This document shows, one piece after another, positions 2,736-51,928 of a stretch of DNA of 51,928 nt (positions within the stretch are counted from its first letter, which is position 1; each line of letters starts with the position of its first letter). Made by a program: the position numbers and the translations under genes. The stretch lies in the UHGV virus genome UHGV-0019417. One strand, written 5' to 3'. The notes beneath the pieces were generated by a model, which ran no database searches, was not told the DNA's origin, and saw only the letters and a program-made list of their open reading frames with translations. The stretch is from a virus.

Positions 2736-3058
2736 GCTGTTAAATTTTGGGCCCATTTGTGAAATAAGGTGTAGGGCCCTGTATATAAGTACTAGTACTC
2801 TGTCGCTCTCTTGCAAAAAAATTTTTAGACTATTCACCAAAATCGCTACAAATCTAAAAAAAATATAAATTTCTATTAAAGGTCAAAATATTTCTCAAAA
2901 ATAAAGCAGGCCCTTTCCAGGCTCGTTAATTTTTGTGAAATCTATCAAAATAAAAAATTAGATTGAATTTAGAATGGTTAAAAAATGTATAAAATAAAGC
3001 AGGCCCCCAGGCAAAAAAGTAGCTTTTGCTATTTACTCTTAGCAAAATTTATAGTTAC

Positions 3059-6017: not shown

Positions 6018-6041
6018 TATATAATAAATATATAAAAAAGT

Positions 6042-6081
6042 GTCTCCAGAGCTACTCTGAGCGCTCTGGAGACGCTTTTTT
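6042..6081 (+). terminator. rho-independent terminator after terL
   Basis: GTCTCCAGAGC ... GCTCTGGAGAC 11-bp stem followed by GCTTTTTT. Confidence 0.8.
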
Positions 6082-6199: not shown

Positions 6200-6277
6200 C
6201 GATATACAGTAAACCTAAGCAGCTTTAATAAAAAAATGTTGCTTTTGTAGTATAATCACATTTAAAAATTAAAATTT

Positions 6278-9218: not shown

Positions 9219-10160
9219 ATGTTAACAGTAGAAATTCTTAGACAAAATGCAGCTCTTTCTGGTTTGACAGATGAGCAATTTAATACAATTGCCACAATGT
9301 CACAGAATGATGAAAATACAGTAATCGGTACAAAAATTGGAGCATTGCATGGTGCATATGATGCTGATATTTTAAAAATTACTGGTATTACAAAAAATAA
9401 CGGTGAAAAGAGTTATGATTATGCTAAGCGTGTTCTTAACAATTATAAGGCACAGCTTGGTTCAGTTGATACATTAAAATCTCAGATCGAAACACAAAAA
9501 ACTGAGATTACTAGTTTGAAAGAAAAGCTTGCTAGTAATTCAACTGATGAAACTCTTAAGCAACAACTTTCTGATGCACAGAATAGAGTATCTGAATTGC
9601 AAAAACAGCTGAAAACAAAAGAGACTGAATTTCAAAATTCTAATGAAGCACATAAAAAAGAAGTAAAAGATATCCAAGTAAATTATGCCTTTGCCAATGC
9701 TACTTCTGGTTTGAAATTCAAAGCAGGTATTTCAGATGAGCTACAAAAAGTTTTACTTAATGCAGCTAAAACAGAAATTTTAGCAAAAGGGACACCCGAT
9801 TTTATAGATAATAATGGAACAAAAGTTCTTGTTTATCGTGATACAAATGGCAACATTCTTAACAATCCAGCAAACAGCTTAAATCCTTATACTACAAAAG
9901 AACTGCTTATGCAAACTTCGATTAAGGATGCTATTGATACTGGCATACAGCAAAATGGTAGTGGAACAAAAAATATTACTGGCAATAAAAACAATAATAG
10001 CCCTTTAGACTTATCATCTGCAAAAACACAAATTGAAGCTGATAAATCTATTGAAAGTTATTTGCTTTCACAAGGTATTACAAGAGATTCAGAGCAATTC
10101 TCAGAGCAATCATTACAATTAAGAAATGATAATAATGTTGCTCAATTGCCTATTAGATAA
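9219..10160 (+). CDS. putative scaffolding protein
   Basis: 313 aa, central coiled-coil-like Q/K/E-rich region, directly upstream of the putative capsid gene. Confidence 0.35.
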   Translation: MLTVEILRQNAALSGLTDEQFNTIATMSQNDENTVIGTKIGALHGAYDADILKITGITKNNGEKSYDYAKRVLNNYKAQLGSVDTLKSQIETQKTEITSLKEKLASNSTDETLKQQLSDAQNRVSELQKQLKTKETEFQNSNEAHKKEVKDIQVNYAFANATSGLKFKAGISDELQKVLLNAAKTEILAKGTPDFIDNNGTKVLVYRDTNGNILNNPANSLNPYTTKELLMQTSIKDAIDTGIQQNGSGTKNITGNKNNNSPLDLSSAKTQIEADKSIESYLLSQGITRDSEQFSEQSLQLRNDNNVAQLPIR

Positions 10161-11472: not shown

Positions 11473-12774
11473 ATGTTAAGAATACAAGAACTACAAAACA
11501 AGTTGCTTCATTTAATTGGATGGGAGCAATACTATAACACATCCGAATTATCTATATCTGATAATTTGACAAAAAGTGAAAGTGGTATATACTTTCAACA
11601 TATACATCCATTGCTTACATTAGATAATATTTCAAGTATTGCACCTGATTTTAGAAATGTAAGCTATGATGAATACAGCAGTGAAATTAACTATAAAAAA
11701 GGTAACATTGTAAAGTACAATGATAATATATATAAAGCTTTACAAGATAACATCAATGTAGAACCGAATGATATAGATAACTGGGTTTTAACAAATCCAT
11801 TTTCAGAATGGCTTGAACAAAAAACAAAAGCGAGCATTACAAAAGCTATTACTCGATTTTTGAATGAAAAATTGGGCAATGGAGCAACAAAAGATTTGGT
11901 TGAAAATAAAGTATTGTTTGATGGAACAGGCCGTATAGTTGATACAATTAAAAATAAAAATAATCTTGTAGGATTTGAAGTTATACCTGTTAGAGCTAAA
12001 GGAGTAGTTACAAAAATAAATAAAATAGGATTACAATTTACTGAGCCAGGTGAATATACAATATATATCATGCATTCAAGTAGTATGATTCCTATGTATA
12101 CATTAAAACTGACAAAACTAAAAAAGAATACATTTGAATGGTTTAATGTAGATGATATCTATTTAAACTATGAAAACAGCTCTGAATCTGGTGGTAGTTG
12201 GTATATATGCTATAAACAGTCAGAAATTCCAAAAGGAAGTCAAGCTATACAAAAAAATTATGATTGGTCTAAAGGACCTTGCAAAGATTGCTCAAGACTT
12301 AATATGATTTTATGGAAAGCTTGGTCTAAATATATAGAAATACATCCATTTTACACAAATGAAGAATTAATTCCAGAAAGTGATGATACGATAAATTTAT
12401 GGGATATTGAAGATAATCAATATACTTATGATACGAATTATGGATTAAACCTTGATATAAGTATAAGCTGTGATTTAACAGATTTTATTATAAATAATAA
12501 ATATGTATTTCAAGATGTAATAGCTAAACAACTAGCAGTTGATATGCTTAGAGAATTTGCTTATAACTCTAATGTAAGAACAAATAGGCATGCTATCAAT
12601 GCTGCTCGTGTTGATATACTATATGAAATTGATGGAGATTCATCATCTATGAAAAAATCAGGTTTAAGTTATCAATTAGATAATGCTTTTAAAGCATTAA
12701 ATATAAGTACAGAAGGTATTGATAGAGTATGCTTGCCTTGTGTAAACAATGGAATAAAATATAGAACTATATAA
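11473..12774 (+). CDS. hypothetical structural protein
   Basis: 433-aa ORF, first gene of the tail-side operon. Confidence 0.45.
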   Translation: MLRIQELQNKLLHLIGWEQYYNTSELSISDNLTKSESGIYFQHIHPLLTLDNISSIAPDFRNVSYDEYSSEINYKKGNIVKYNDNIYKALQDNINVEPNDIDNWVLTNPFSEWLEQKTKASITKAITRFLNEKLGNGATKDLVENKVLFDGTGRIVDTIKNKNNLVGFEVIPVRAKGVVTKINKIGLQFTEPGEYTIYIMHSSSMIPMYTLKLTKLKKNTFEWFNVDDIYLNYENSSESGGSWYICYKQSEIPKGSQAIQKNYDWSKGPCKDCSRLNMILWKAWSKYIEIHPFYTNEELIPESDDTINLWDIEDNQYTYDTNYGLNLDISISCDLTDFIINNKYVFQDVIAKQLAVDMLREFAYNSNVRTNRHAINAARVDILYEIDGDSSSMKKSGLSYQLDNAFKALNISTEGIDRVCLPCVNNGIKYRTI

Positions 12775-31912: not shown

Positions 31913-31998
31913 GCCTCAGTGGTGAAAGTGGTAGACACGAAAGACTTAAAATCTTTTAAACAGAAATGTTTGTGCAGGTTCGAATCCTGTCTGAGGTA
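31913..31998 (+). tRNA. tRNA-Leu (anticodon UAA), type II with a long variable arm
   Basis: acceptor GCCTCAG/CTGAGGT (G1-U72), D-arm GTG-AAAGTGGTAGA-CAC, anticodon arm AAAGA-CTTAAAA-TCTTT, 17-nt variable hairpin, T-arm GCAGG-TTCGAAT-CCTGT, discriminator A. Confidence 0.8.
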
Positions 31999-32020
31999 CA
32001 AAATTCTAAGATTAATTTAT

Positions 32021-40140: not shown

Positions 40141-41910
40141 ATGACTACAAACAACAATTATTTGCTAATTACACTAGGCCACAACTCATCTGCATTATTT
40201 ATTGATAACACAAACGGGTGTGACCAAAAAATTATTGGCTATGAACAAGAAAGACTTTCAAGAATTAAATCTGATAGCCAATTTCCATTTGATGCAATCA
40301 ATGAAATTAAAAAGCATGTACCATTTTCTAAATTAGAGGGATGCCAAATACGAATTTCTCACTGGTTTGATGACTTTCTTCCTTCTAGCAATAAGTATAT
40401 TGGTGAAAATGGATTCAGAATGCTAAAAGAAATTTCTACAAATATTGTAGATACTAATGGCAATGGCTTTACACACCATGACGCTCACGCTTATAGTGCA
40501 TATAATTTTATGCTAGAATCGAATACTGATTTGAAGTATTTTAACAAACCAATATATTGTATTGTAGCAGATGGTTTTGGTAATCAGCAAGAAGTTTTTT
40601 CAATTTACGCATTTACACCAAATATTGATACAAAACCAAAGTGTATTTTTAAATCCTACGGCTATTATCAATCTCTTGGTTTGATGTACCAATTTGCAAC
40701 ATCATTTGTTGGAATGAAAGAAAACCAAGATGAATATAAATTTTTAGGATATGAATCACATATCGCTGAAGTTTTAAGTGAGCAACAAATTGCAATGCTA
40801 ACATCTGTTGCTGAATTTGATTCTGACAAAATGATAAAAAGAATAAAAGAGTGCACAGAAAAAATTCAAATTTCAGATATTGATAAAAATATTGGAATCA
40901 GTATTTCTGATTTAGATAAAGCTCGAGATTTATTCAATCATTTATTCTCAAGAGTTTTTAAACATTTAGGCATTGATAAAGATAATAATATTCATATTTC
41001 AAGAGTTATAATGGGATATTATGTACAATGCATCATAGAATCTGTTATTACTAGCTTTATTGATGAATATGAAATGAATAATGTCTGCGTTGCTGGTGGA
41101 TGTTTCTACAATGTAAAATTAAACAATTCAATACTTGAAGCAATAGATGGTTATTTTAGTGCTATGCCTTTAGCAGGAGACCAAGGAGCAGCAATAGGAA
41201 TGTATGCAAAAGAAGTCGGATTTAATTCTAATATTTCTATTAAGTTTAATACGCTGAATTTTGGTAAAAGAAATTTCTATAATGCAGACAAACTAGTATC
41301 TAAAATAAACAATGCATATTATTTTACAAACAGTAAATATGCAGCTATGGCAATATCAGATTTTATTTCAAATGATTGTATTGTTAATATAATACATAAT
41401 GATATGGAATTTGGTCCAAGAGCATTGGGGCATACTTCAACTTTATTTTTGCCAACAGAAGAAAATGTGGCATTTGTAAATTATATAAATAACAGAAATG
41501 AAGTTATGCCATGTGCACCTATATGTACAATTGGAAGTGCTCATGATTTATTTGACATCTATGAATTATCAAGGACAGTCGGTTCTGATAGATTTATGAT
41601 TTGTACACATAAGTATATGAGAAAATATAATAAGCTTTATGGTGGTGTAATGCATAAAAAACCTTTGATTAAAGATTATACTGGAAGACCACAAATTGTA
41701 ACAAAAAATGAAAATTTCTTATATACAATTCTAGAATCTGTTAAAAAAGATACAGGCTATACATGCTTAGTTAATACTAGTTTTAATGTACATGGCCAAC
41801 CTATTGTATTTGATATACACAGTATTATTCAGAATTTTATGTATCAGCAAGCACAAACTTATACGCATAAATTCAATAAAAAAGTTGTATTGGTAATTAT
41901 TAATGATTAA
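40141..41910 (+). CDS. carbamoyltransferase, NodU/CmcH/TobZ family (Kae1-like N-domain plus YrdC-like C-domain)
   Basis: 589 aa; N-terminus LLITLGHNSSALFID....IIGYEQERLSRIKSDSQFPFDAI matches the carbamoyltransferase N-terminal signature (LG.HDS..AL...G....A..EER..R.K.D..FP). Confidence 0.65.
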   Translation: MTTNNNYLLITLGHNSSALFIDNTNGCDQKIIGYEQERLSRIKSDSQFPFDAINEIKKHVPFSKLEGCQIRISHWFDDFLPSSNKYIGENGFRMLKEISTNIVDTNGNGFTHHDAHAYSAYNFMLESNTDLKYFNKPIYCIVADGFGNQQEVFSIYAFTPNIDTKPKCIFKSYGYYQSLGLMYQFATSFVGMKENQDEYKFLGYESHIAEVLSEQQIAMLTSVAEFDSDKMIKRIKECTEKIQISDIDKNIGISISDLDKARDLFNHLFSRVFKHLGIDKDNNIHISRVIMGYYVQCIIESVITSFIDEYEMNNVCVAGGCFYNVKLNNSILEAIDGYFSAMPLAGDQGAAIGMYAKEVGFNSNISIKFNTLNFGKRNFYNADKLVSKINNAYYFTNSKYAAMAISDFISNDCIVNIIHNDMEFGPRALGHTSTLFLPTEENVAFVNYINNRNEVMPCAPICTIGSAHDLFDIYELSRTVGSDRFMICTHKYMRKYNKLYGGVMHKKPLIKDYTGRPQIVTKNENFLYTILESVKKDTGYTCLVNTSFNVHGQPIVFDIHSIIQNFMYQQAQTYTHKFNKKVVLVIIND

Positions 41911-41916
41911 GCAAAA

Positions 41917-42576
41917 ATGAAAAAGCTATATACTCCATACATTGTAGCTTTTTCTGGTGGTTGTTTTTCTGGTAAAACAACCACCATTAAAAAAATTGCT
42001 GAAAAATTAAGGCAACTTGGCTATACTGTATATGTTTTAAATGAAAATATAAGGGACAAAAATGTATTTAGAAAAGCAGGTAATATAGATAATATTAGGC
42101 AAGACCCGAATTCTTATTTGCTTTTACAAAATGAAATAATAAGAGAAAAAATAGAAAATGAAAATGAAATATTGGGAGTTAAATACACTACTAAAACTAT
42201 AATTTTAGTTGATAGGGCTTTAACTGATTCATTGTTTTATTTATCATGCTATGTTGACAAAGTTAATCTAACACTAGAAAATAAAAAAACATTTAAGCAT
42301 CTGTTTAGTTATATTTATATGATTCTTTTACTCAGTAAAAGGTATGATAAAGTATTAGAATTTAGGCCTATAAAAATTGAAAATATCGATAAATACAGGC
42401 CTAAAGATTTAGAGCATTTGCACTTTTTTGAGTATGAAATGATTCATTGCCTTAACAATAATTTTTTTGATAAAAGCATTATGGAAAAAAATATAAACAT
42501 AAAGCAAGAAAGCTGTATAGATAATTTAGTAAATAATATAATAAGAGATTATGCAATTAAACAACGAACAAATTAA
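41917..42576 (+). CDS. P-loop kinase, deoxynucleotide/deoxynucleoside-kinase-like; candidate modified-dNMP or 5-hmdU DNA kinase
   Basis: Walker A AFSGGCFSGKTTT; DRA lid-like motif (VDRALTD). Confidence 0.5.
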   Translation: MKKLYTPYIVAFSGGCFSGKTTTIKKIAEKLRQLGYTVYVLNENIRDKNVFRKAGNIDNIRQDPNSYLLLQNEIIREKIENENEILGVKYTTKTIILVDRALTDSLFYLSCYVDKVNLTLENKKTFKHLFSYIYMILLLSKRYDKVLEFRPIKIENIDKYRPKDLEHLHFFEYEMIHCLNNNFFDKSIMEKNINIKQESCIDNLVNNIIRDYAIKQRTN

Positions 42577-43333
42577 AAATTTAATAACATCTCCACATTG
42601 GCAAAAAATATTTAAGCAATTATATAATTCAAAAAATTCAGAAAATGATAGCTGTTTTGAGTTAATCGGATTTCAATATTCATTTAACCCACGAAAAAAT
42701 TATATAATATCAAGAAATAAATTAGTTTTTGATATAGAGAAAGCTGCAAAAATGTATTATTGGTATAAAAATAAAAACAGTAGTGATAAATCAATAATTG
42801 ATAGCTTTCCTGAATATGAAAATTGTTTTTATGGAGGAAAATTTTTAAGTAAACAAAAATGCAATTCTAATTATGGAATATATGCATATAATAAAAATGG
42901 ATTAGATTTTTGTATTGAAAAGTTAAAAGCAAATTATAAAACAAGGCAAGCTTGCTTTTGTATAAATAATAATAAAGCAATGTCTTCACCAGATAAACTT
43001 TGTACAAATACAATTCATTTTAATATAAAAAATGAGAGACTGATTATGGTTATACAAATGAGGTCATCAAATTTTTTAACTTTACTTCCTTATGATATTT
43101 TTAACTTTACAATTTTTTATGCTTATGTGTATGAAGCTTTAAGAGATTATTATTTTAATTTGAAAACGTGCGATATTGTAATGCAAATAAACTCATTGCA
43201 CTGTTATACAAAAGATTTAATAAAAGCTATTGGTATAAAAGATTTATCTTATCCAAATAATCTTTTAAGCTTTTCTGTTAAAAAAATAATAAATAATTTT
43301 GAAAATAATTTAAAAAGATGCAACGAACAATGA
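42551..43333 (+). CDS. divergent ThyA-family protein (thymidylate synthase / pyrimidine hydroxymethylase fold)
   Basis: IQMRSSNFLTLLPYDIFNFTIFYA aligns to ThyA QRSxDxFLGxPFNIASYALL; Cys in QACFC aligns to PCH; the residue at the ThyA Asn177 position is not Asn/Asp. Confidence 0.5.
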   Translation: MQLNNEQIKNLITSPHWQKIFKQLYNSKNSENDSCFELIGFQYSFNPRKNYIISRNKLVFDIEKAAKMYYWYKNKNSSDKSIIDSFPEYENCFYGGKFLSKQKCNSNYGIYAYNKNGLDFCIEKLKANYKTRQACFCINNNKAMSSPDKLCTNTIHFNIKNERLIMVIQMRSSNFLTLLPYDIFNFTIFYAYVYEALRDYYFNLKTCDIVMQINSLHCYTKDLIKAIGIKDLSYPNNLLSFSVKKIINNFENNLKRCNEQ

Positions 43334-43839
43334 CACCAGGAAAATTTAGATTTACAAAAGTACGTGATGTAAAATCACCAGTTAGAGGTACAAACTTATC
43401 TGCTGGTATTGATTTTTTTGTACCAAAAGATTTTAAGCCATTTGTTCTTTTGCCACATAAGGATGTGTTAATCCCGTCTGGTATTAAAGCCTCATTTGAA
43501 AAAGTTTGTATGCTAATGGCAGCAGAAAAATCAGGCGTAACAAGCTCAGCTGAAGCAAAAGCTATTTCTAATATGGATGCTAATAATTCATACCAATCAC
43601 CTACAGTTTTAGGAGCAAAGATTGTTGATGCAGATTATCAAGGAGAAATACACATCCACATTATAAATGTAGGTAATAAACCTATTCTTATTGAGCCAGA
43701 CAAGAAAATAGCTCAGTTTATTTTAGTGCCTGTTTTATATTGCGAAATTGAAGAGATAGATTCAGAAAAAGAATTGTTCGCAAATGAATGCTCTTCTCGT
43801 GGTAACAAAGGTTTTGGTAAAGGAACTGGTGAAAATTAA
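43318..43839 (+). CDS. dut: dUTPase (trimeric dUTPase/dCTP-deaminase superfamily)
   Basis: motif I SAGIDF, motif III GAKIVDADYQGE, motif IV IAQFILVPV. Confidence 0.8.
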   Translation: MQRTMTPGKFRFTKVRDVKSPVRGTNLSAGIDFFVPKDFKPFVLLPHKDVLIPSGIKASFEKVCMLMAAEKSGVTSSAEAKAISNMDANNSYQSPTVLGAKIVDADYQGEIHIHIINVGNKPILIEPDKKIAQFILVPVLYCEIEEIDSEKELFANECSSRGNKGFGKGTGEN

Positions 43840-43844
43840 ATGAT

Positions 43845-44297
43845 ATGACAATTGGAAAAGCTTTAGAGTTAGTAGACACTCCTGTATTTTTGCAGAATGT
43901 TGAAAAATACTTAAATAAATGGCTATATTTAGCTAAATTGCCCAATGGGCCGTTAGGAAGATGGCTTTGTGAATATCAGCAAATGGAAGATAAAGGATTA
44001 TTTAAGCCTGCTATCTTTAAAGCTTTTTATAAATTAGAATTGCAAAGCAAGTTAAATATAGGCTTTATAAAAAGTTGTCCAGTTCATTATGTTGGTGTAT
44101 ATGCTATGGATGATACATATTTATATTATAGCTTACGAGAGCATAGTTATAAAATATGTGTTATTACAGGAGAAATAGCATGTGATGATGATGGTGATGA
44201 TTTAATAGGTTTATCTTATGATGAAGCTAAAGAAATTTGTGATTCTATGAATATTGAAGCTGAAGAAAAATTATTTAAAATAATGGTAAATGATTAG
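43845..44297 (+). CDS. hypothetical protein
   Basis: 150-aa ORF inside the nucleotide-metabolism cluster; acidic C-terminus. Confidence 0.4.
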   Translation: MTIGKALELVDTPVFLQNVEKYLNKWLYLAKLPNGPLGRWLCEYQQMEDKGLFKPAIFKAFYKLELQSKLNIGFIKSCPVHYVGVYAMDDTYLYYSLREHSYKICVITGEIACDDDGDDLIGLSYDEAKEICDSMNIEAEEKLFKIMVND

Positions 44298-44949
44298 TCT
44301 AATATGTAAAAATGCTACAGAAGCTTTTGAGATATTGTATGAAACAATTTCAAGAGTTGGCCAATCTACTAATATAGATACAAAAGCTATTTATAATGTA
44401 AGTATTGAAATACAAAATCCAACCGATAGAAATATAACAACACATTGGAGAAAATGGAGTAAAAAATATGCTGAAAGAGAATGGAACTGGTATTTATCAG
44501 CAAATCCTTCTGTACAAGAAATTAAAAAGTTTGCTCCTATGTGGGATAAAATGCACAGCGGAAATAATATTGTAAATTCAAATTATGGCTTCCAATGGTC
44601 AAGAAACAAGCAACTACAAAAAGTAATTGAACAACTACAAAAAAATCCTAATTCTCGTCAAGCATGGATTACTATCTACGATGGAAAAGAAAAAGATAAT
44701 TATGATTTTGATACACCTTGCACATTAGCTGTAGGATTTGATATAAAGCCAAATAGCGAATCAGTTGATATGACAGTGTGTATGAGGTCAAATGATTTAA
44801 TATATGGATTTTGTAATGACCAGTATTGTTTTAGTAAATTACAAGAATATGTAGCTCATCTTTTAAACAGGCCAGTTGGAACATATACTCATTTTGCACA
44901 TGACATGCATATTTATAATAATAAACTTAACTTAAAAAATTATGAATAA
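44290..44949 (+). CDS. ThyA-family enzyme, uracil-type (thymidylate synthase or dUMP hydroxymethylase)
   Basis: YGFQWS, NPNSRQAWITIY, catalytic DTPCTL (PCH equivalent), MRSNDLIYGFCNDQYCF (QRSxD..G.PFN), HIYNN with Asn at the ThyA N177 position; short at 219 aa. Confidence 0.75.
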   Translation: MISLICKNATEAFEILYETISRVGQSTNIDTKAIYNVSIEIQNPTDRNITTHWRKWSKKYAEREWNWYLSANPSVQEIKKFAPMWDKMHSGNNIVNSNYGFQWSRNKQLQKVIEQLQKNPNSRQAWITIYDGKEKDNYDFDTPCTLAVGFDIKPNSESVDMTVCMRSNDLIYGFCNDQYCFSKLQEYVAHLLNRPVGTYTHFAHDMHIYNNKLNLKNYE

Positions 44950-50380: not shown

Positions 50381-50475
50381 TGTGAGCTACTCTGAGCGCT
50401 CTGGAGATGCTTTTTTATTTTTGACGATAACTTTTATTACTTTTATATAAAAACGTCTCCAGAGCGCTCAAAATA
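50381..50475. terminator. terminator region between the convergent rightward late and leftward early transcription units; contains degenerate copies of the GTCTCCAGAGCGCTC terminator family
   Basis: AGCTACTCTGAGCGCTCTGGAGATGCTTTTTT matches the 3' half of the terL terminator; 50448-50475 matches the left arm of the 47041 terminator. Confidence 0.45.
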
Positions 50476-50571
50476 GCTAATATTTCCAAATATATCTAAT
50501 GTTAAACGAGGTTTTTTATACAAACATAAAAATAAGCCAAGCAAACTATTTTCTAGTATGCTTGGCTTAAA

Positions 50572-50880
50572 TTATATATGCAAAGCAAGTATAAACTGCT
50601 TTGTATTTTTACCATAATTATTATGTGTTTCACTTATTAAACTAACAGGAAAATCATTAATAATTTTGGTAATAAAATTATTTATTTGTTTTTCAACATT
50701 TGGTTTTATAGCATTACTACTACAAAATGTAATAGTAATATCCATATAACCTCCTGGCCCAAATGCTCTAGACCCACAATGCCATGAAACCAAATCTAAT
50801 TTCAATTTTGTACAGAGCTTATCTGCTAAATCTCTAATTTGGTTGTAAGCATTGATTTCTTCTTGAGTTTCATTTATCAT
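50572..50880 (-). CDS. hypothetical small early protein
   Basis: 102-aa ORF overlapping the upstream gene by 11 nt (operon). Confidence 0.45.
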   Translation of the reverse strand: MINETQEEINAYNQIRDLADKLCTKLKLDLVSWHCGSRAFGPGGYMDITITFCSSNAIKPNVEKQINNFITKIINDFPVSLISETHNNYGKNTKQFILALHI

Positions 50881-51166
50881 TGAGCATTTTGTTTATGGCT
50901 AAGTTTGATTTGATTGTTTTCAATAAATCATTCAAATCAAATTTAACATAGTCAATTAAGCCTGGTTCTGTATCAAAGTGAGCTTCATACTTATCTATTA
51001 AAAACAAAGCGAAGTTATATATCGTAAACAAATCTCTAAAGCTTGTATTACTAATAGCCTCGTAAGTCTTAATAATCATATCAAGGTCTTCTTTGCTAAA
51101 CCAACACATCAAATCGACTTGCAAAAATATAGCCAACTTGTGTTTACTTTTCTCATCTAATTTCAT
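50870..51166 (-). CDS. hypothetical small early protein; paralog of 51274..51591
   Basis: 98 aa; shares WFSKEDL..I.K.YEA.S.T.F and INKMLN C-terminus with 51274..51591; preceded by class-A leader. Confidence 0.5.
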   Translation of the reverse strand: MKLDEKSKHKLAIFLQVDLMCWFSKEDLDMIIKTYEAISNTSFRDLFTIYNFALFLIDKYEAHFDTEPGLIDYVKFDLNDLLKTIKSNLAINKMLNDK

Positions 51167-51290
51167 AATTTTAGGGTTGTTTTATGTTCTAGGCAATGTC
51201 GCCTATTGTTCCCTATAGCAGATTCGAACTGCTCTACTTTCGTATCCACCCAACTGTGGCTAGGGATATAAGCCTAATTAGACTTATTAA
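51167..51290 (-). repeat. class-A leader repeat copy (d); tRNA-like core at 51211-51265
   Basis: CATAATTTTAGGGTTGTTTTATGTTCTAGGCAATGTCGCCTATTGTTCCCTATAGCAGATTCGAACTGCTCTACTTTCGTATCCACCCAACTGTGGCTAGGGATATAAGCCT, near-identical to copies b and c. Confidence 0.8.
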
Positions 51291-51591
51291 GCATTTTATT
51301 TATAACATAACTAGGTTTAGTTGCTCTTAACAACCTAGTTAGCTCAAATCTAATAAAATCAAATGCTTCTTGGCTTTCTACGTTAAAGCCCGCATTAACA
51401 TATTGATTTATCAAAAACCAAGCGAAATTACGTGTCTTAGTTTTCGTAGGTGCTTCAAATTTAGTAGAGCTAAGAGCCTCGTATACTTTCATAATAAAAG
51501 CGAGGTCTTCTTTGCTAAACCAAGACATCATATTGACCTCATACACTTTAGTGATAAAAACGAGGTCTTTACGTCCTTCAGTTGATTCCAT
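51274..51591 (-). CDS. hypothetical small early protein; paralog of 50870..51166
   Basis: 105-aa ORF preceded by class-A leader copy (c). Confidence 0.5.
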   Translation of the reverse strand: MESTEGRKDLVFITKVYEVNMMSWFSKEDLAFIMKVYEALSSTKFEAPTKTKTRNFAWFLINQYVNAGFNVESQEAFDFIRFELTRLLRATKPSYVINKMLNKSN

Positions 51592-51715
51592 AATTTTAGG
51601 GTTGTTTTATGTTCTAGGCAATGTCGCCTATTGTTCCCTATAGCAGATTCGAACTGCTCTACTTTCGTATCCACCCAACTGTGGCTAGGGATATAAGCCT
51701 TTATTTAGGCTTTTT
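51592..51715 (-). repeat. class-A leader repeat copy (c); tRNA-like core at 51646-51690
   Basis: identical core sequence to copy d. Confidence 0.8.
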
Positions 51716-51890
51716 TGGTTTTCGTAAAATTTAAGTTTACTTGCCACTTTGAGAATAGCAAGGCGAGTTCCATTTCTTTTTCGTGGTCTGTAAATCGCCA
51801 CTTGAGCCCAATTCCCATGGCTATTTTACATTCTGAATCAATGACTTCACACTTTGTTTCGTAGTAAGCCTTGTTTGTAATAATTTTCAT
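51705..51890 (-). CDS. hypothetical small early protein
   Basis: 61-aa ORF; its upstream class-A leader spans the window junction (51891-51928 plus 1-88). Confidence 0.45.
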   Translation of the reverse strand: MKIITNKAYYETKCEVIDSECKIAMGIGLKWRFTDHEKEMELALLFSKWQVNLNFTKTKKA

Positions 51891-51928
51891 AATTTTAGGT
51901 TTTTTATGTTCTAGGCAATGTCGCCTAT
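51891..51928 (-). repeat. class-A leader repeat copy (b), 5' part; continues seamlessly at window positions 1-88 (tRNA-like core at 5-59)
   Basis: ...GGCAATGTCGCCTAT | TGTTCCCTATAGCAGATTCGAAC... reproduces the copy c/d sequence across the end/start junction. Confidence 0.8.

Follow-up and report, generated by a model that had tools for sequence, protein, structure and literature searches.

The DNA described here, referred to as the window, is the whole 51,928-nucleotide (nt) stretch of virus genome UHGV-0019417, and our analysis concerns a cluster of small leftward genes in which a repeat of about 110 nt, built around a core that resembles a tRNA without an anticodon arm, recurs immediately 5′ of small open reading frames (ORFs). 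As the initial annotation of this DNA had reported, there are four such repeats, all on the minus strand: copy a at 51167-51290, copy b at 51592-51715, copy c at 51891-51928 continuing at 1-88, and copy d at 566-680. Each stops at the ATG of a small ORF, of 98, 105, 61 and 161 amino acids for copies a, b, c and d, respectively. Copy c is unbroken across the window end, and the window therefore represents a complete, circularly permuted phage genome of ~52 kb; in ENA contig ERZ27287240 k141_426718 (L008, 51,973 bp), from a near-identical strain, the whole array is contiguous.

Read leftward on the minus strand, the array begins with ORF161 (80-565), the only cassette gene kept in all related arrays (family F0) and one with no significant Pfam or PHROG function. 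It is followed by ORF61 (51705-51890), which is without a family match, by ORF105 (51274-51591), a paralogue of ORF98, and by ORF98 itself (50870-51166) with the overlapping ORF102; these last two genes of the operon together span 50572-51166 and have no element between them. The position of the ORF105 and ORF98 paralogues between identical repeats indicates a tandem duplication, and ORF161 contains a perfect 21-bp tandem repeat (378-426), by which the motif KKAAIEA is repeated in the Lys/Ala/Glu-rich N-terminal part of the protein. Beyond ORF102, a long GC-rich hairpin (50385-50478, no strand assigned) between convergent genes is the probable operon end and transcription terminator; Rfam returned for it only spurious microRNA-precursor matches, which reflect a long perfect hairpin. 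The word CTCCAGAGCGCTC is shared by this hairpin and a second GC-rich hairpin after the terminase gene (~6040-6075), also a probable terminator, and a similar hairpin follows TerL in relatives (L059, ~11575-11605). Searches of Pfam and PHROGs with eight small leftward ORFs gave no significant match. The proposal that these are early host-takeover or anti-defence cassettes found no support. The five encoded proteins have no significant family match; an Acb2/Tad1 hairpin match to ORF102 is sub-threshold (E 0.07) and was not taken as evidence of an anti-defence role. All database records for the ORF105 protein are ~50-kb genomic assemblies.

Along the minus strand the repeated unit reads, in order, a first hairpin (hp1, AAGYCTAAWTAAAGGCTT), a 4-nt spacer, the tRNA-like core, the bases A-CAA-T, a second hairpin (hp2, AGGCGACATTGCCT), a 24-nt A-rich leader (CCCTAAAATT) and the ATG. 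In copies a-c, the stop codon of the ORF upstream lies within hp1 or directly beside it; copy d, which has no gene upstream, lacks hp1. The core comprises a 6-bp acceptor helix (TCCCTA/TAGGGA), a D-like arm (CCAC-AGTTGG-GTGG) and a T-arm (AGCAG-TTCGAAT-CTGCT), and the core sequence, hairpin and leader first quoted for it are all present. The absence of an anticodon arm also stands, but not the 13-nt single strand said to take its place, where a 3-bp stem with a GAAA tetraloop (UAC-GAAA-GUA), invariant among the copies, is predicted instead. RNAfold gives the 60-nt core a four-way clover (-18.6 kcal/mol, z -2.55), and folds the whole 131-nt intercistronic unit as hp1, clover and hp2 (z -3.13).

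A covariance model, R1, built from the four window cores recovers only those cores in the window (92-96 bits), the next match being a tRNA-Leu at 17 bits. The first element, copy d, has its core at 605-664 (92 bits), in the 5′ leader ~90 nt after the promoter, with an hp2 (AGGCGATTTTGCCT, 589-602) that lies 5 nt past the acceptor-like helix and differs from those of copies a-c in loop bases alone. In copy c, a predicted stem-loop, hp1 (AAGTCTAAATAAAGGCTT, 64-81), begins in the ORF161 TAA stop, the core occupies 1-60 (95.6 bits; contiguous in L008 at 9604-9663), and hp2 (51913-51926) and the A-rich leader fill 51891-51928, reaching the ORF61 ATG. Copy b has the ORF61 TAA stop inside the loop of its hp1 (AAGCCTAAATAAAGGCTT, 51695-51712), a core at 51632-51691 (95.6 bits), and hp2 (51616-51629) with the leader AGAACATAAAACAACCCTAAAATT at 51592-51629. 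The hp1 of copy a (AAGTCTAATTAGGCTT, 51270-51285) contains the ORF105 TAG stop, its core lies at 51207-51266 (95.6 bits), and its hp2 (51191-51204), one loop base of which differs in L008, and leader cover 51167-51204. In the window, hp2 is confined to these four repeats. Of the T-arm 15-mer there are three exact occurrences and one with 3 mismatches, where 0.8 would be expected.

Copies b, c and d had been described as essentially identical; it is instead copies a, b and c that share identical 60-nt cores, as part of an identity that extends over ~110 nt, and copy d that carries six substitutions. Four of these form two compensatory pairs, a C-G to U-A change in the D stem and another in the T stem, and the remaining two are loop transitions, one of which keeps a purine at the T-loop position equivalent to R57. 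The probability that six random substitutions would produce at least two doubly hit pairs is 0.005. Compared with a tRNA, the core possesses the 12-bp acceptor/T-stem stack, the T-loop consensus GTTCRANYC and the D-loop GG, and lacks the anticodon stem-loop, reduced here to a 3-bp GAAA stub and missing altogether in relatives. On the window, ARAGORN calls only the tRNA-Leu at 31913-31999, neither calling the repeats nor finding a transfer-messenger RNA (tmRNA), and Rfam 15 assigns no tRNA or relevant family to the repeats at gathering or permissive (E<=10) thresholds.

Relatives of the array were not found by direct comparison. A nucleotide search of GenBank phages gave no match to the array, and a 12-kb stretch only a tRNA-sized match; in IMG/VR, the exact linker motif GGATACGAAAGTAGAG had 7 matches, all chance occurrences inside coding sequence, and the degenerate 3′ half GTTCRAATCYRCTATAGGGA had none, so the long form seen in the window has no close copy in that database. 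A neighbouring 360-amino-acid protein used as a search anchor gave zero confirmed relatives. Relatives were gathered through TerL, which is encoded 3.7 kb from the array, yielding 63 viral and 80 metagenome loci from ~50-kb phages. The nearest isolates are Bacteroides fragilis phages, BF503P1, BF486P2 and others, with a TerL identity of 69%. From these isolates, the origin of the contigs in gut and rumen and the presence of TAnnTTTG promoters, the host would be a member of the Bacteroidales; metagenome-assembled genome bins of the TerL relatives were set aside as a guide to the host, their labels (Clostridia, Christensenellaceae, Porphyromonadaceae) being inconsistent and probably binning artefacts.

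Many of these relatives contain weaker matches to the model, on the same strand and in the same region, several per genome and 45-65 nt long. A typical short element reads ACCCTA-TTTGGAACTAAG-GCAGAG-TTCGATT-CTCTGC-TAGGGT-TCAA. Common to all versions are a 12-layer helix of acceptor and T stem, the T-loop and an N-CAA tail, and a GG in the linker is usual: it lies within the first 14 nt in 28 of the 31 linkers listed, at element nt 10-11 in 24 of them. The T-loop, G-TTCGAnT-C, is nearly invariant across elements. The segment between acceptor and T stems is variable, and may be an 11-nt strand, one or two small hairpins or, in the window, the D-arm with its stub. A genome holds 4-7 nearly identical copies, although stem sequence often differs between elements of one genome. 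Rfam assigns the relatives' elements to no tRNA or other matching family.

Conservation of the helix was measured in an alignment, A6, of 32 distinct and mutually related elements from the TerL-related phages, from which the variable linker had been cut out and in which 12 pairs were scored. Pairing was found in 96.6% of cells, a percentage inflated because most sequences were chosen by a pairing scan or a structure-aware model, against 66.7% ± 1.6 in 500 shuffles, none of which reached 96.6%. Eleven of the 12 pairs are altered on both sides, with 113 doubly changed cells (control, 32.6) and a covariation score of 0.783 (control, 0.204). Independent of pairing-based selection are the slide control, in which only 32-53% of cells are paired when partners are slid by 1-3 columns, and the variety of pair types, one T-stem pair occurring as AU, GC, CG and UA. 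The helix has been kept by compensatory change across lineages with 66-82% TerL identity. Moreover, the T-loop is readable only on the coding strand and every copy is in that orientation, which identifies the selected object as an RNA. The initial view of the repeats as a structured RNA module is thus upheld by pairs that covary in copy d and strongly across related phages and by copies that all lie on the sense strand; scans of those phages, by pairing or with a structure-aware model, supplied most of the further copies in which 11 of 12 pairs covary, and a reading of the repeats as duplicated sequence only was not borne out.

A second, larger tRNA-like element (70-90 nt, CCTCGT...T-arm...ACGAGG-GCCA/GCTA) occurs on the plus strand just after TerL in relatives (L059 11744-11813, L010 5276-5345, L047 11740-11813; also L077, L078 and L116). 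It has a long hairpin in place of the anticodon arm, belongs to the leader of the structural-gene operon, where it lies right behind a TATATTTG promoter, and is called a tRNA by neither ARAGORN nor Rfam; in L047 a real tRNA-Met comes immediately after it. At the corresponding place after TerL (6200-6277), the window has a simple hairpin only.

The likely ancestry of the elements emerged from an IMG/VR scan for the 3′ half of the module (TTCGAnTC-N12-CAA-N0-6-GGCAATAnTGCC), which returned 49 viral stretches, mostly ~50-kb contigs of the same phage group and others too. In L170, L176 and L205, a genuine tRNA-Asn(GTT), recognized by ARAGORN and by Rfam at 49-57 bits, precedes the succession CAA-hp2-leader-ATG. 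In L188 the same slot holds an 89-nt tRNA that is aberrant, its anticodon arm being unreadable, and in L190 and L171 a minihelix. The downstream genes of L170, L188 and L190 are orthologous (53-64% identity), so that one and the same gene may follow a tRNA-Asn, a crippled tRNA or a minihelix, and the occupant of the slot varies by phage. CAA also trails the discriminator of the window tRNA-Leu and of tRNA-Asn, -Arg and -Met in related contigs, all of them without an encoded CCA. The window tRNA, a genuine tRNA-Leu(TAA) (31913-31999, plus strand), lies inside the plus-strand replication operon, and its trailer, A|CAAAA, equals the tail of the tRNA-like elements. Contig L170, which has a tRNA-Asn/hp2 module, also contains an Rfam match to RT-17 RNA at 2772-2868 (minus strand; 44 bits, above the gathering score). 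We regard the structure, placement and tRNA origin of the elements as well supported. The arrangement of the genes suggests that the slot tRNA is co-transcribed with its neighbors; to function, a tRNA has to be released by RNase P together with a 3′ activity, and this release, if the tRNA is co-transcribed, would set the mRNA ends of those neighbors.

Rules of position, counted over 52 copies, are strict. All 52 are on the sense strand of the flanking genes, and they begin 0-34 nt past the upstream stop codon, the exception being the leader copy, whose upstream 'ORF' is probably spurious. The stop abuts the helix in 10 of the 52, and in a further 13 the last A of UAA is itself nt +1 of the helix, giving 23 in all. 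Elements whose upstream stop lies farther off are usually preceded by a hairpin that holds the stop in or close to its loop, as in the window, L015/L016, L055, L120, L122 and the unrelated 62.7-kb contig L171. On the other side, a downstream ORF follows 51 copies, and for 50 of these the next ATG lies 22-44 nt beyond the discriminator-like base; hp2, typically GGCAATAnTGCC, lies 3-5 nt past the discriminator in most, not all, copies.

The array has a single recognizable promoter. Promoters in Bacteroidetes use TAnnTTTG, a box that in this AT-rich genome is found 115 times against 100 expected by chance, such that only an extended form of the motif is informative. The extended motif, a -7 box TACATTTG (768-761) followed by the conserved CAATGTGATTAAAAAAA (745-768 overall, minus strand), has a single occurrence in the window, ~90 nt before copy d. 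Likewise it is found once upstream of the arrays in L011, L047 and L059, and also upstream of elements in L015-L017, and the intercistronic stretches of the window, L011, L047 and L059 contain no -7 box. No phage RNA polymerase or RNA-processing enzyme was detected among the proteins scanned, for which reason host enzymes would be used; with a single promoter and no intercistronic -7 box, the array looks like one host-transcribed operon. BF503P1 offers a counterpart: its leftward gene cluster has the promoter TAtATTTG-yAATGTGATaAtAAAA three times, and no tRNA-like element is found there by covariance model R2 with filters off. Judged from sequence, the elements look as though they occupy the place that separate promoters hold in this relative.

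We think it somewhat likely that the elements are tRNAs in degenerate form, retained within one operon as processing signals for RNase P and RNase Z. According to this model, host RNA polymerase would transcribe the leftward cluster as a single operon from the promoter at 768-761. Each degenerate tRNA would retain only what end-processing enzymes read, namely the coaxial helix of acceptor and T-arm, the T-loop with its docking GG (the 'elbow') and N-CAA, while the anticodon arm is reduced to a stub in the window phage and deleted in relatives. Host RNase P would cut at the 5′ edge of the element, and RNase Z or an equivalent 3′ activity after the discriminator-like base. The two cuts would excise a tRNA-like RNA of ~45-60 nt and convert the polycistronic transcript into single-gene mRNAs. 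The upstream product would end in hp1, enclosing or abutting its stop codon, and the downstream product would start 3-5 nt before hp2 and continue into the A-rich, Shine-Dalgarno-less leader. Terminal hairpins placed in this way are the classical geometry of exonuclease protection, and hp1 and hp2 may shield the new mRNA ends from exonucleases. Cleavage itself, the enzymes responsible and the protective role of hp1 and hp2 are what we infer from these features. Among the functions that the initial annotation had listed, RNase P/Z punctuation fits best, on the basis of one promoter per array, elements that abut stops, and genuine tRNAs in the same slot elsewhere, with processing as its presumptive part. 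The excised mini-tRNAs might additionally act on host factors that recognize tRNAs.

Several observations, in addition to the inflated pairing percentage of A6, weigh against these elements as RNase P substrates that separate cistrons. In the 13 copies that overlap UAA, a canonical RNase P cut would truncate the stop codon of the message. Of 27 distinct elements, 26 have A at position -1, even without an adjacent stop, whereas genuine tRNAs at the same loci have T or G there and U is usually preferred in bacteria; the invariant A(-1) could reflect a different enzyme, or avoidance of 5′ cleavage. Copy d lies in the 5′ leader, where no cistron requires separation, and some neighboring genes of the arrays have no intervening element. 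In the short forms, the most stable predicted fold has not the acceptor helix but an alternative closing helix, formed by the linker with the discriminator region; this alternative helix shows one co-change (GGAAC/GTTC versus GGTAC/GTAC). Finally, hp2 is conserved in sequence across phage groups beyond the need of a mere protective hairpin. The control region of BF503P1 (L073 ~9300-9660, minus strand) is packed with hp2-like TGCCA-N-TGGCA or GGCAATATTGCC-type palindromes. Taken together, hp2 conservation and these palindromes suggest a bound protein, and a phage DNA- or RNA-binding protein may recognize the TGCCA-N-TGGCA-type word. The conserved hp2 and the invariant A(-1) point to further recognition factors.

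Some of the same observations would be accommodated by an uncleaved cis-acting module, a fold that stays in the mRNA and aids expression of the gene on one side, either as a 3′ tRNA-like cap that stabilizes the upstream message (with a 3′ cut only) or as a recruiter of ribosomes or another factor before a start that lacks a Shine-Dalgarno sequence. The tight 22-44-nt distance to the next ATG, the leader copy with no cistrons to separate and the A(-1) unlike that of real tRNAs at these loci all favor such a module, and the 23 of 52 copies in which the stop touches or runs into the helix fit a structure in the 3′ untranslated region better than a 5′ cut. We nevertheless consider it unlikely. Genuine tRNAs, which need excision to function, fill the same slot in other phages, the features retained are exactly those that end-processing enzymes read, hp1 ahead of the element is left unexplained, and we know of no bacterial precedent for a tRNA-like module that acts uncleaved in cis.

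Less probable still, the released tRNA-like RNAs could be the product, several copies per operon flooding the cell with acceptor/T-arm mimics that titrate or decoy host factors that read the elbow and acceptor, such as tRNA-targeting defense nucleases, the CCA-adding enzyme or modification enzymes. The 4-7 nearly identical copies per genome, the host-type promoter and the retention of elbow and acceptor features with loss of the decoding part are what a decoy would be expected to show. A decoy, however, needs neither strict intercistronic placement nor flanking hairpins; relatives manage without any copy, no defense-related protein was identified nearby, and this explanation also presupposes the processing step of the one that we prefer.

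We give very little credence to the repeat as a DNA-level regulatory unit, a duplicated promoter or operator in which hp2 is a palindromic protein site and each gene has its own TTGCCT-17-TAAAAT promoter. A sigma-70 scan does report TTGCCT/TAAAAT with this spacing (9/12) in two repeats, hp2 is a near-perfect palindrome of conserved sequence, and similar palindromes crowd the BF503P1 non-coding region. Sigma-70-like matches are, however, at chance level (11 versus 11.4 expected), the match in the two repeats is not kept in relatives, and its -10-like box ends 1 nt before the ATG, so that a transcript would begin inside the gene. The TAnnTTTG box is absent from the repeats, covariation of the 12-bp helix together with a strand-specific T-loop is the signature of an RNA, and hp2 does not occur in the window outside the four repeats. 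The duplicated promoter offered earlier as an alternative thus gives way, in that no host-type promoter lies in the repeats and the paired positions covary across relatives. The DNA-level reading may hold for hp2 alone.

It is similarly very doubtful that the repeats are recombination modules comparable to the promoter early stem-loop (PeSL) elements of T4-type phages, providing homology for the shuffling, duplication and exchange of small gene cassettes. Both are short, lie between small phage genes of unknown function and are associated with gene shuffling. Cassette content and order vary among related arrays in which the elements persist, the ORF105/ORF98 tandem duplication is flanked by identical repeats, and copies a-c have the ~110-nt identity described above. 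Homology alone, however, leaves the compensatory changes, the tRNA-specific loop, the strand bias and the fixed distances to stop and start unexplained, and stems often differ between elements of one genome. The comparison of gene content between repeats that the initial annotation had in mind shows cassettes that differ and are reordered between relatives, which makes recombination at the repeats plausible as a side effect, and we regard it as probably a by-product. PeSL are defined by an early promoter and a stem-loop, and the analogy drawn with them fails because the phage unit contains no host-type promoter: no repeat has a TAnnTTTG box, a single extended motif lies upstream of the array, and sigma-70-like matches are at chance. 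Decaying pseudo-tRNAs without present function are hardly credible: there is indeed a gradation from genuine tRNA to minihelix, but compensatory change has preserved the helix, the T-loop is near-invariant and the elements have multiplied within genomes.

Other classes were excluded on their anatomy. The integron cassette/attC comparison made at the outset does not hold, as no integrase domain was found in the proteins scanned and the fold is tRNA-like and not the bulged hairpin of attC. A tRNA-derived attP is rejected as well: the element exists in several copies, both of its acceptor strands are present and covary, and an integrase was not found. The tRNA-like parts of tmRNA and of the bacterial Y RNA YrlA are like the phage elements in combining an acceptor/T-arm mimic and a D-loop analogue with the absence of an anticodon arm. 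What sets these two classes apart is, for tmRNA, a reading frame for the tag peptide together with pseudoknots and, for YrlA, a helix that binds Ro60 and usually a neighboring rsr gene. Rfam finds neither class here, and ARAGORN reports no tmRNA; no TROVE/Ro60 protein was present among the proteins scanned, which did not include every small ORF.

Plant mitochondrial t-elements direct cleavage by RNase P and RNase Z at mRNA ends; their borders coincide with mRNA 5′ and 3′ ends, the excised element is detectable and carries non-templated C/A, and at other ends there are stem-loops (Forner et al. 2007, PMC1920247). The phage elements share with t-elements a non-canonical tRNA-like fold on the transcribed strand, a conserved T-arm motif and an acceptor-like stem beside coding regions; the t-element motif GGTTCRANYCC (PMC1920247) is found in full in many relatives, and the window sequence AGTTCGAATCT matches it except at the first and last letters. 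In contrast to the phage elements, t-elements are organellar, are scattered singly and have no shared ancestry with them. The phage elements form regular operon arrays, are 45-60 nt long with a fixed framing by hp1 and hp2, apparently substitute for per-gene promoters, and are ones whose cleavage we infer. In animal mitochondria, genes abut tRNAs without a spacer, tRNA excision frees the mRNAs, and stops may overlap the tRNA 5′ end, as they do in 13 of the 52 phage copies. The animal mitochondrial marks are, however, functional tRNAs, with incomplete stops finished by polyadenylation, and the phage marks cannot decode; stop completion by polyadenylation is not known from Bacteroidota. The mascRNA of MALAT1 and MEN-beta, with its poor anticodon arm, is cut by RNase P and RNase Z, which frees an RNA of ~60 nt and makes an mRNA or lncRNA end, but this system is eukaryotic and nuclear, with one element per transcript and an upstream end protected by a triple helix and not by a hairpin. 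Host RNase P is also known to cut non-tRNA RNAs, including the C4 RNA of P1/P7, the M3 RNA of phi80 and polycistronic mRNAs of E. coli, of which some are encoded by phages and some are cut between cistrons. Those sites are single and idiosyncratic, without a mimic of the T-loop or elbow, whereas the phage elements constitute a repeated module.

Two further features of the window deserve mention. Just upstream of the array promoter lies a gene-free, AT-rich region of ~600 bp (non-coding stretch 680-1280), in which GAGCGC-containing words recur and 5.2 tandem copies of a 17-bp unit, TTCATTATTGTTATAAG, occupy 1123-1211; the tandem units could be replication-origin iterons or a regulatory site. 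On the plus strand, a cluster at 40141-44949 encodes a carbamoyltransferase (40141-41910) and AAA_28/thymidylate-kinase-like (41917-42576), dUTPase/dCTP-deaminase-like (43318-43839) and thymidylate-synthase-like (44290-44949) proteins, which suggests hypermodified DNA bases. The apparent counterpart, by position, of the thymidylate-synthase-like protein in BF503P1 is annotated as a dCMP hydroxymethyltransferase.

The literature that we searched, with incomplete coverage, describes no tRNA-like intercistronic elements for phages or Bacteroidota. What is new here is that putative tRNA-like processing signals are found in another host system, where they are built into a modular architecture of a new kind and have evidently arisen from tRNA. 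More tentatively, a widespread group of gut Bacteroidota phages may have turned tRNA genes into minimal cut signals, such that one promoter yields many stable monocistronic mRNAs by means of host RNase P and RNase Z. Arrays processed in this way would be a counterpart of mitochondrial tRNA punctuation and evolutionarily interchangeable with per-gene promoters. If the proposal is true, this would be, to our knowledge, the first tRNA-punctuation system in a bacterial virus, and it would show how the genes on long transcripts come to expression in Bacteroidota, in which translation is not led by Shine-Dalgarno sequences and mRNA processing is poorly known. The path from working tRNA to crippled tRNA to 45-nt minihelix would isolate the minimal end-processing substrate in vivo. 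The module would then also provide a compact natural part for multi-gene expression in Bacteroides, and a new mark by which operon structure and 'orphan' intergenic repeats could be annotated in the genomes of gut phages.

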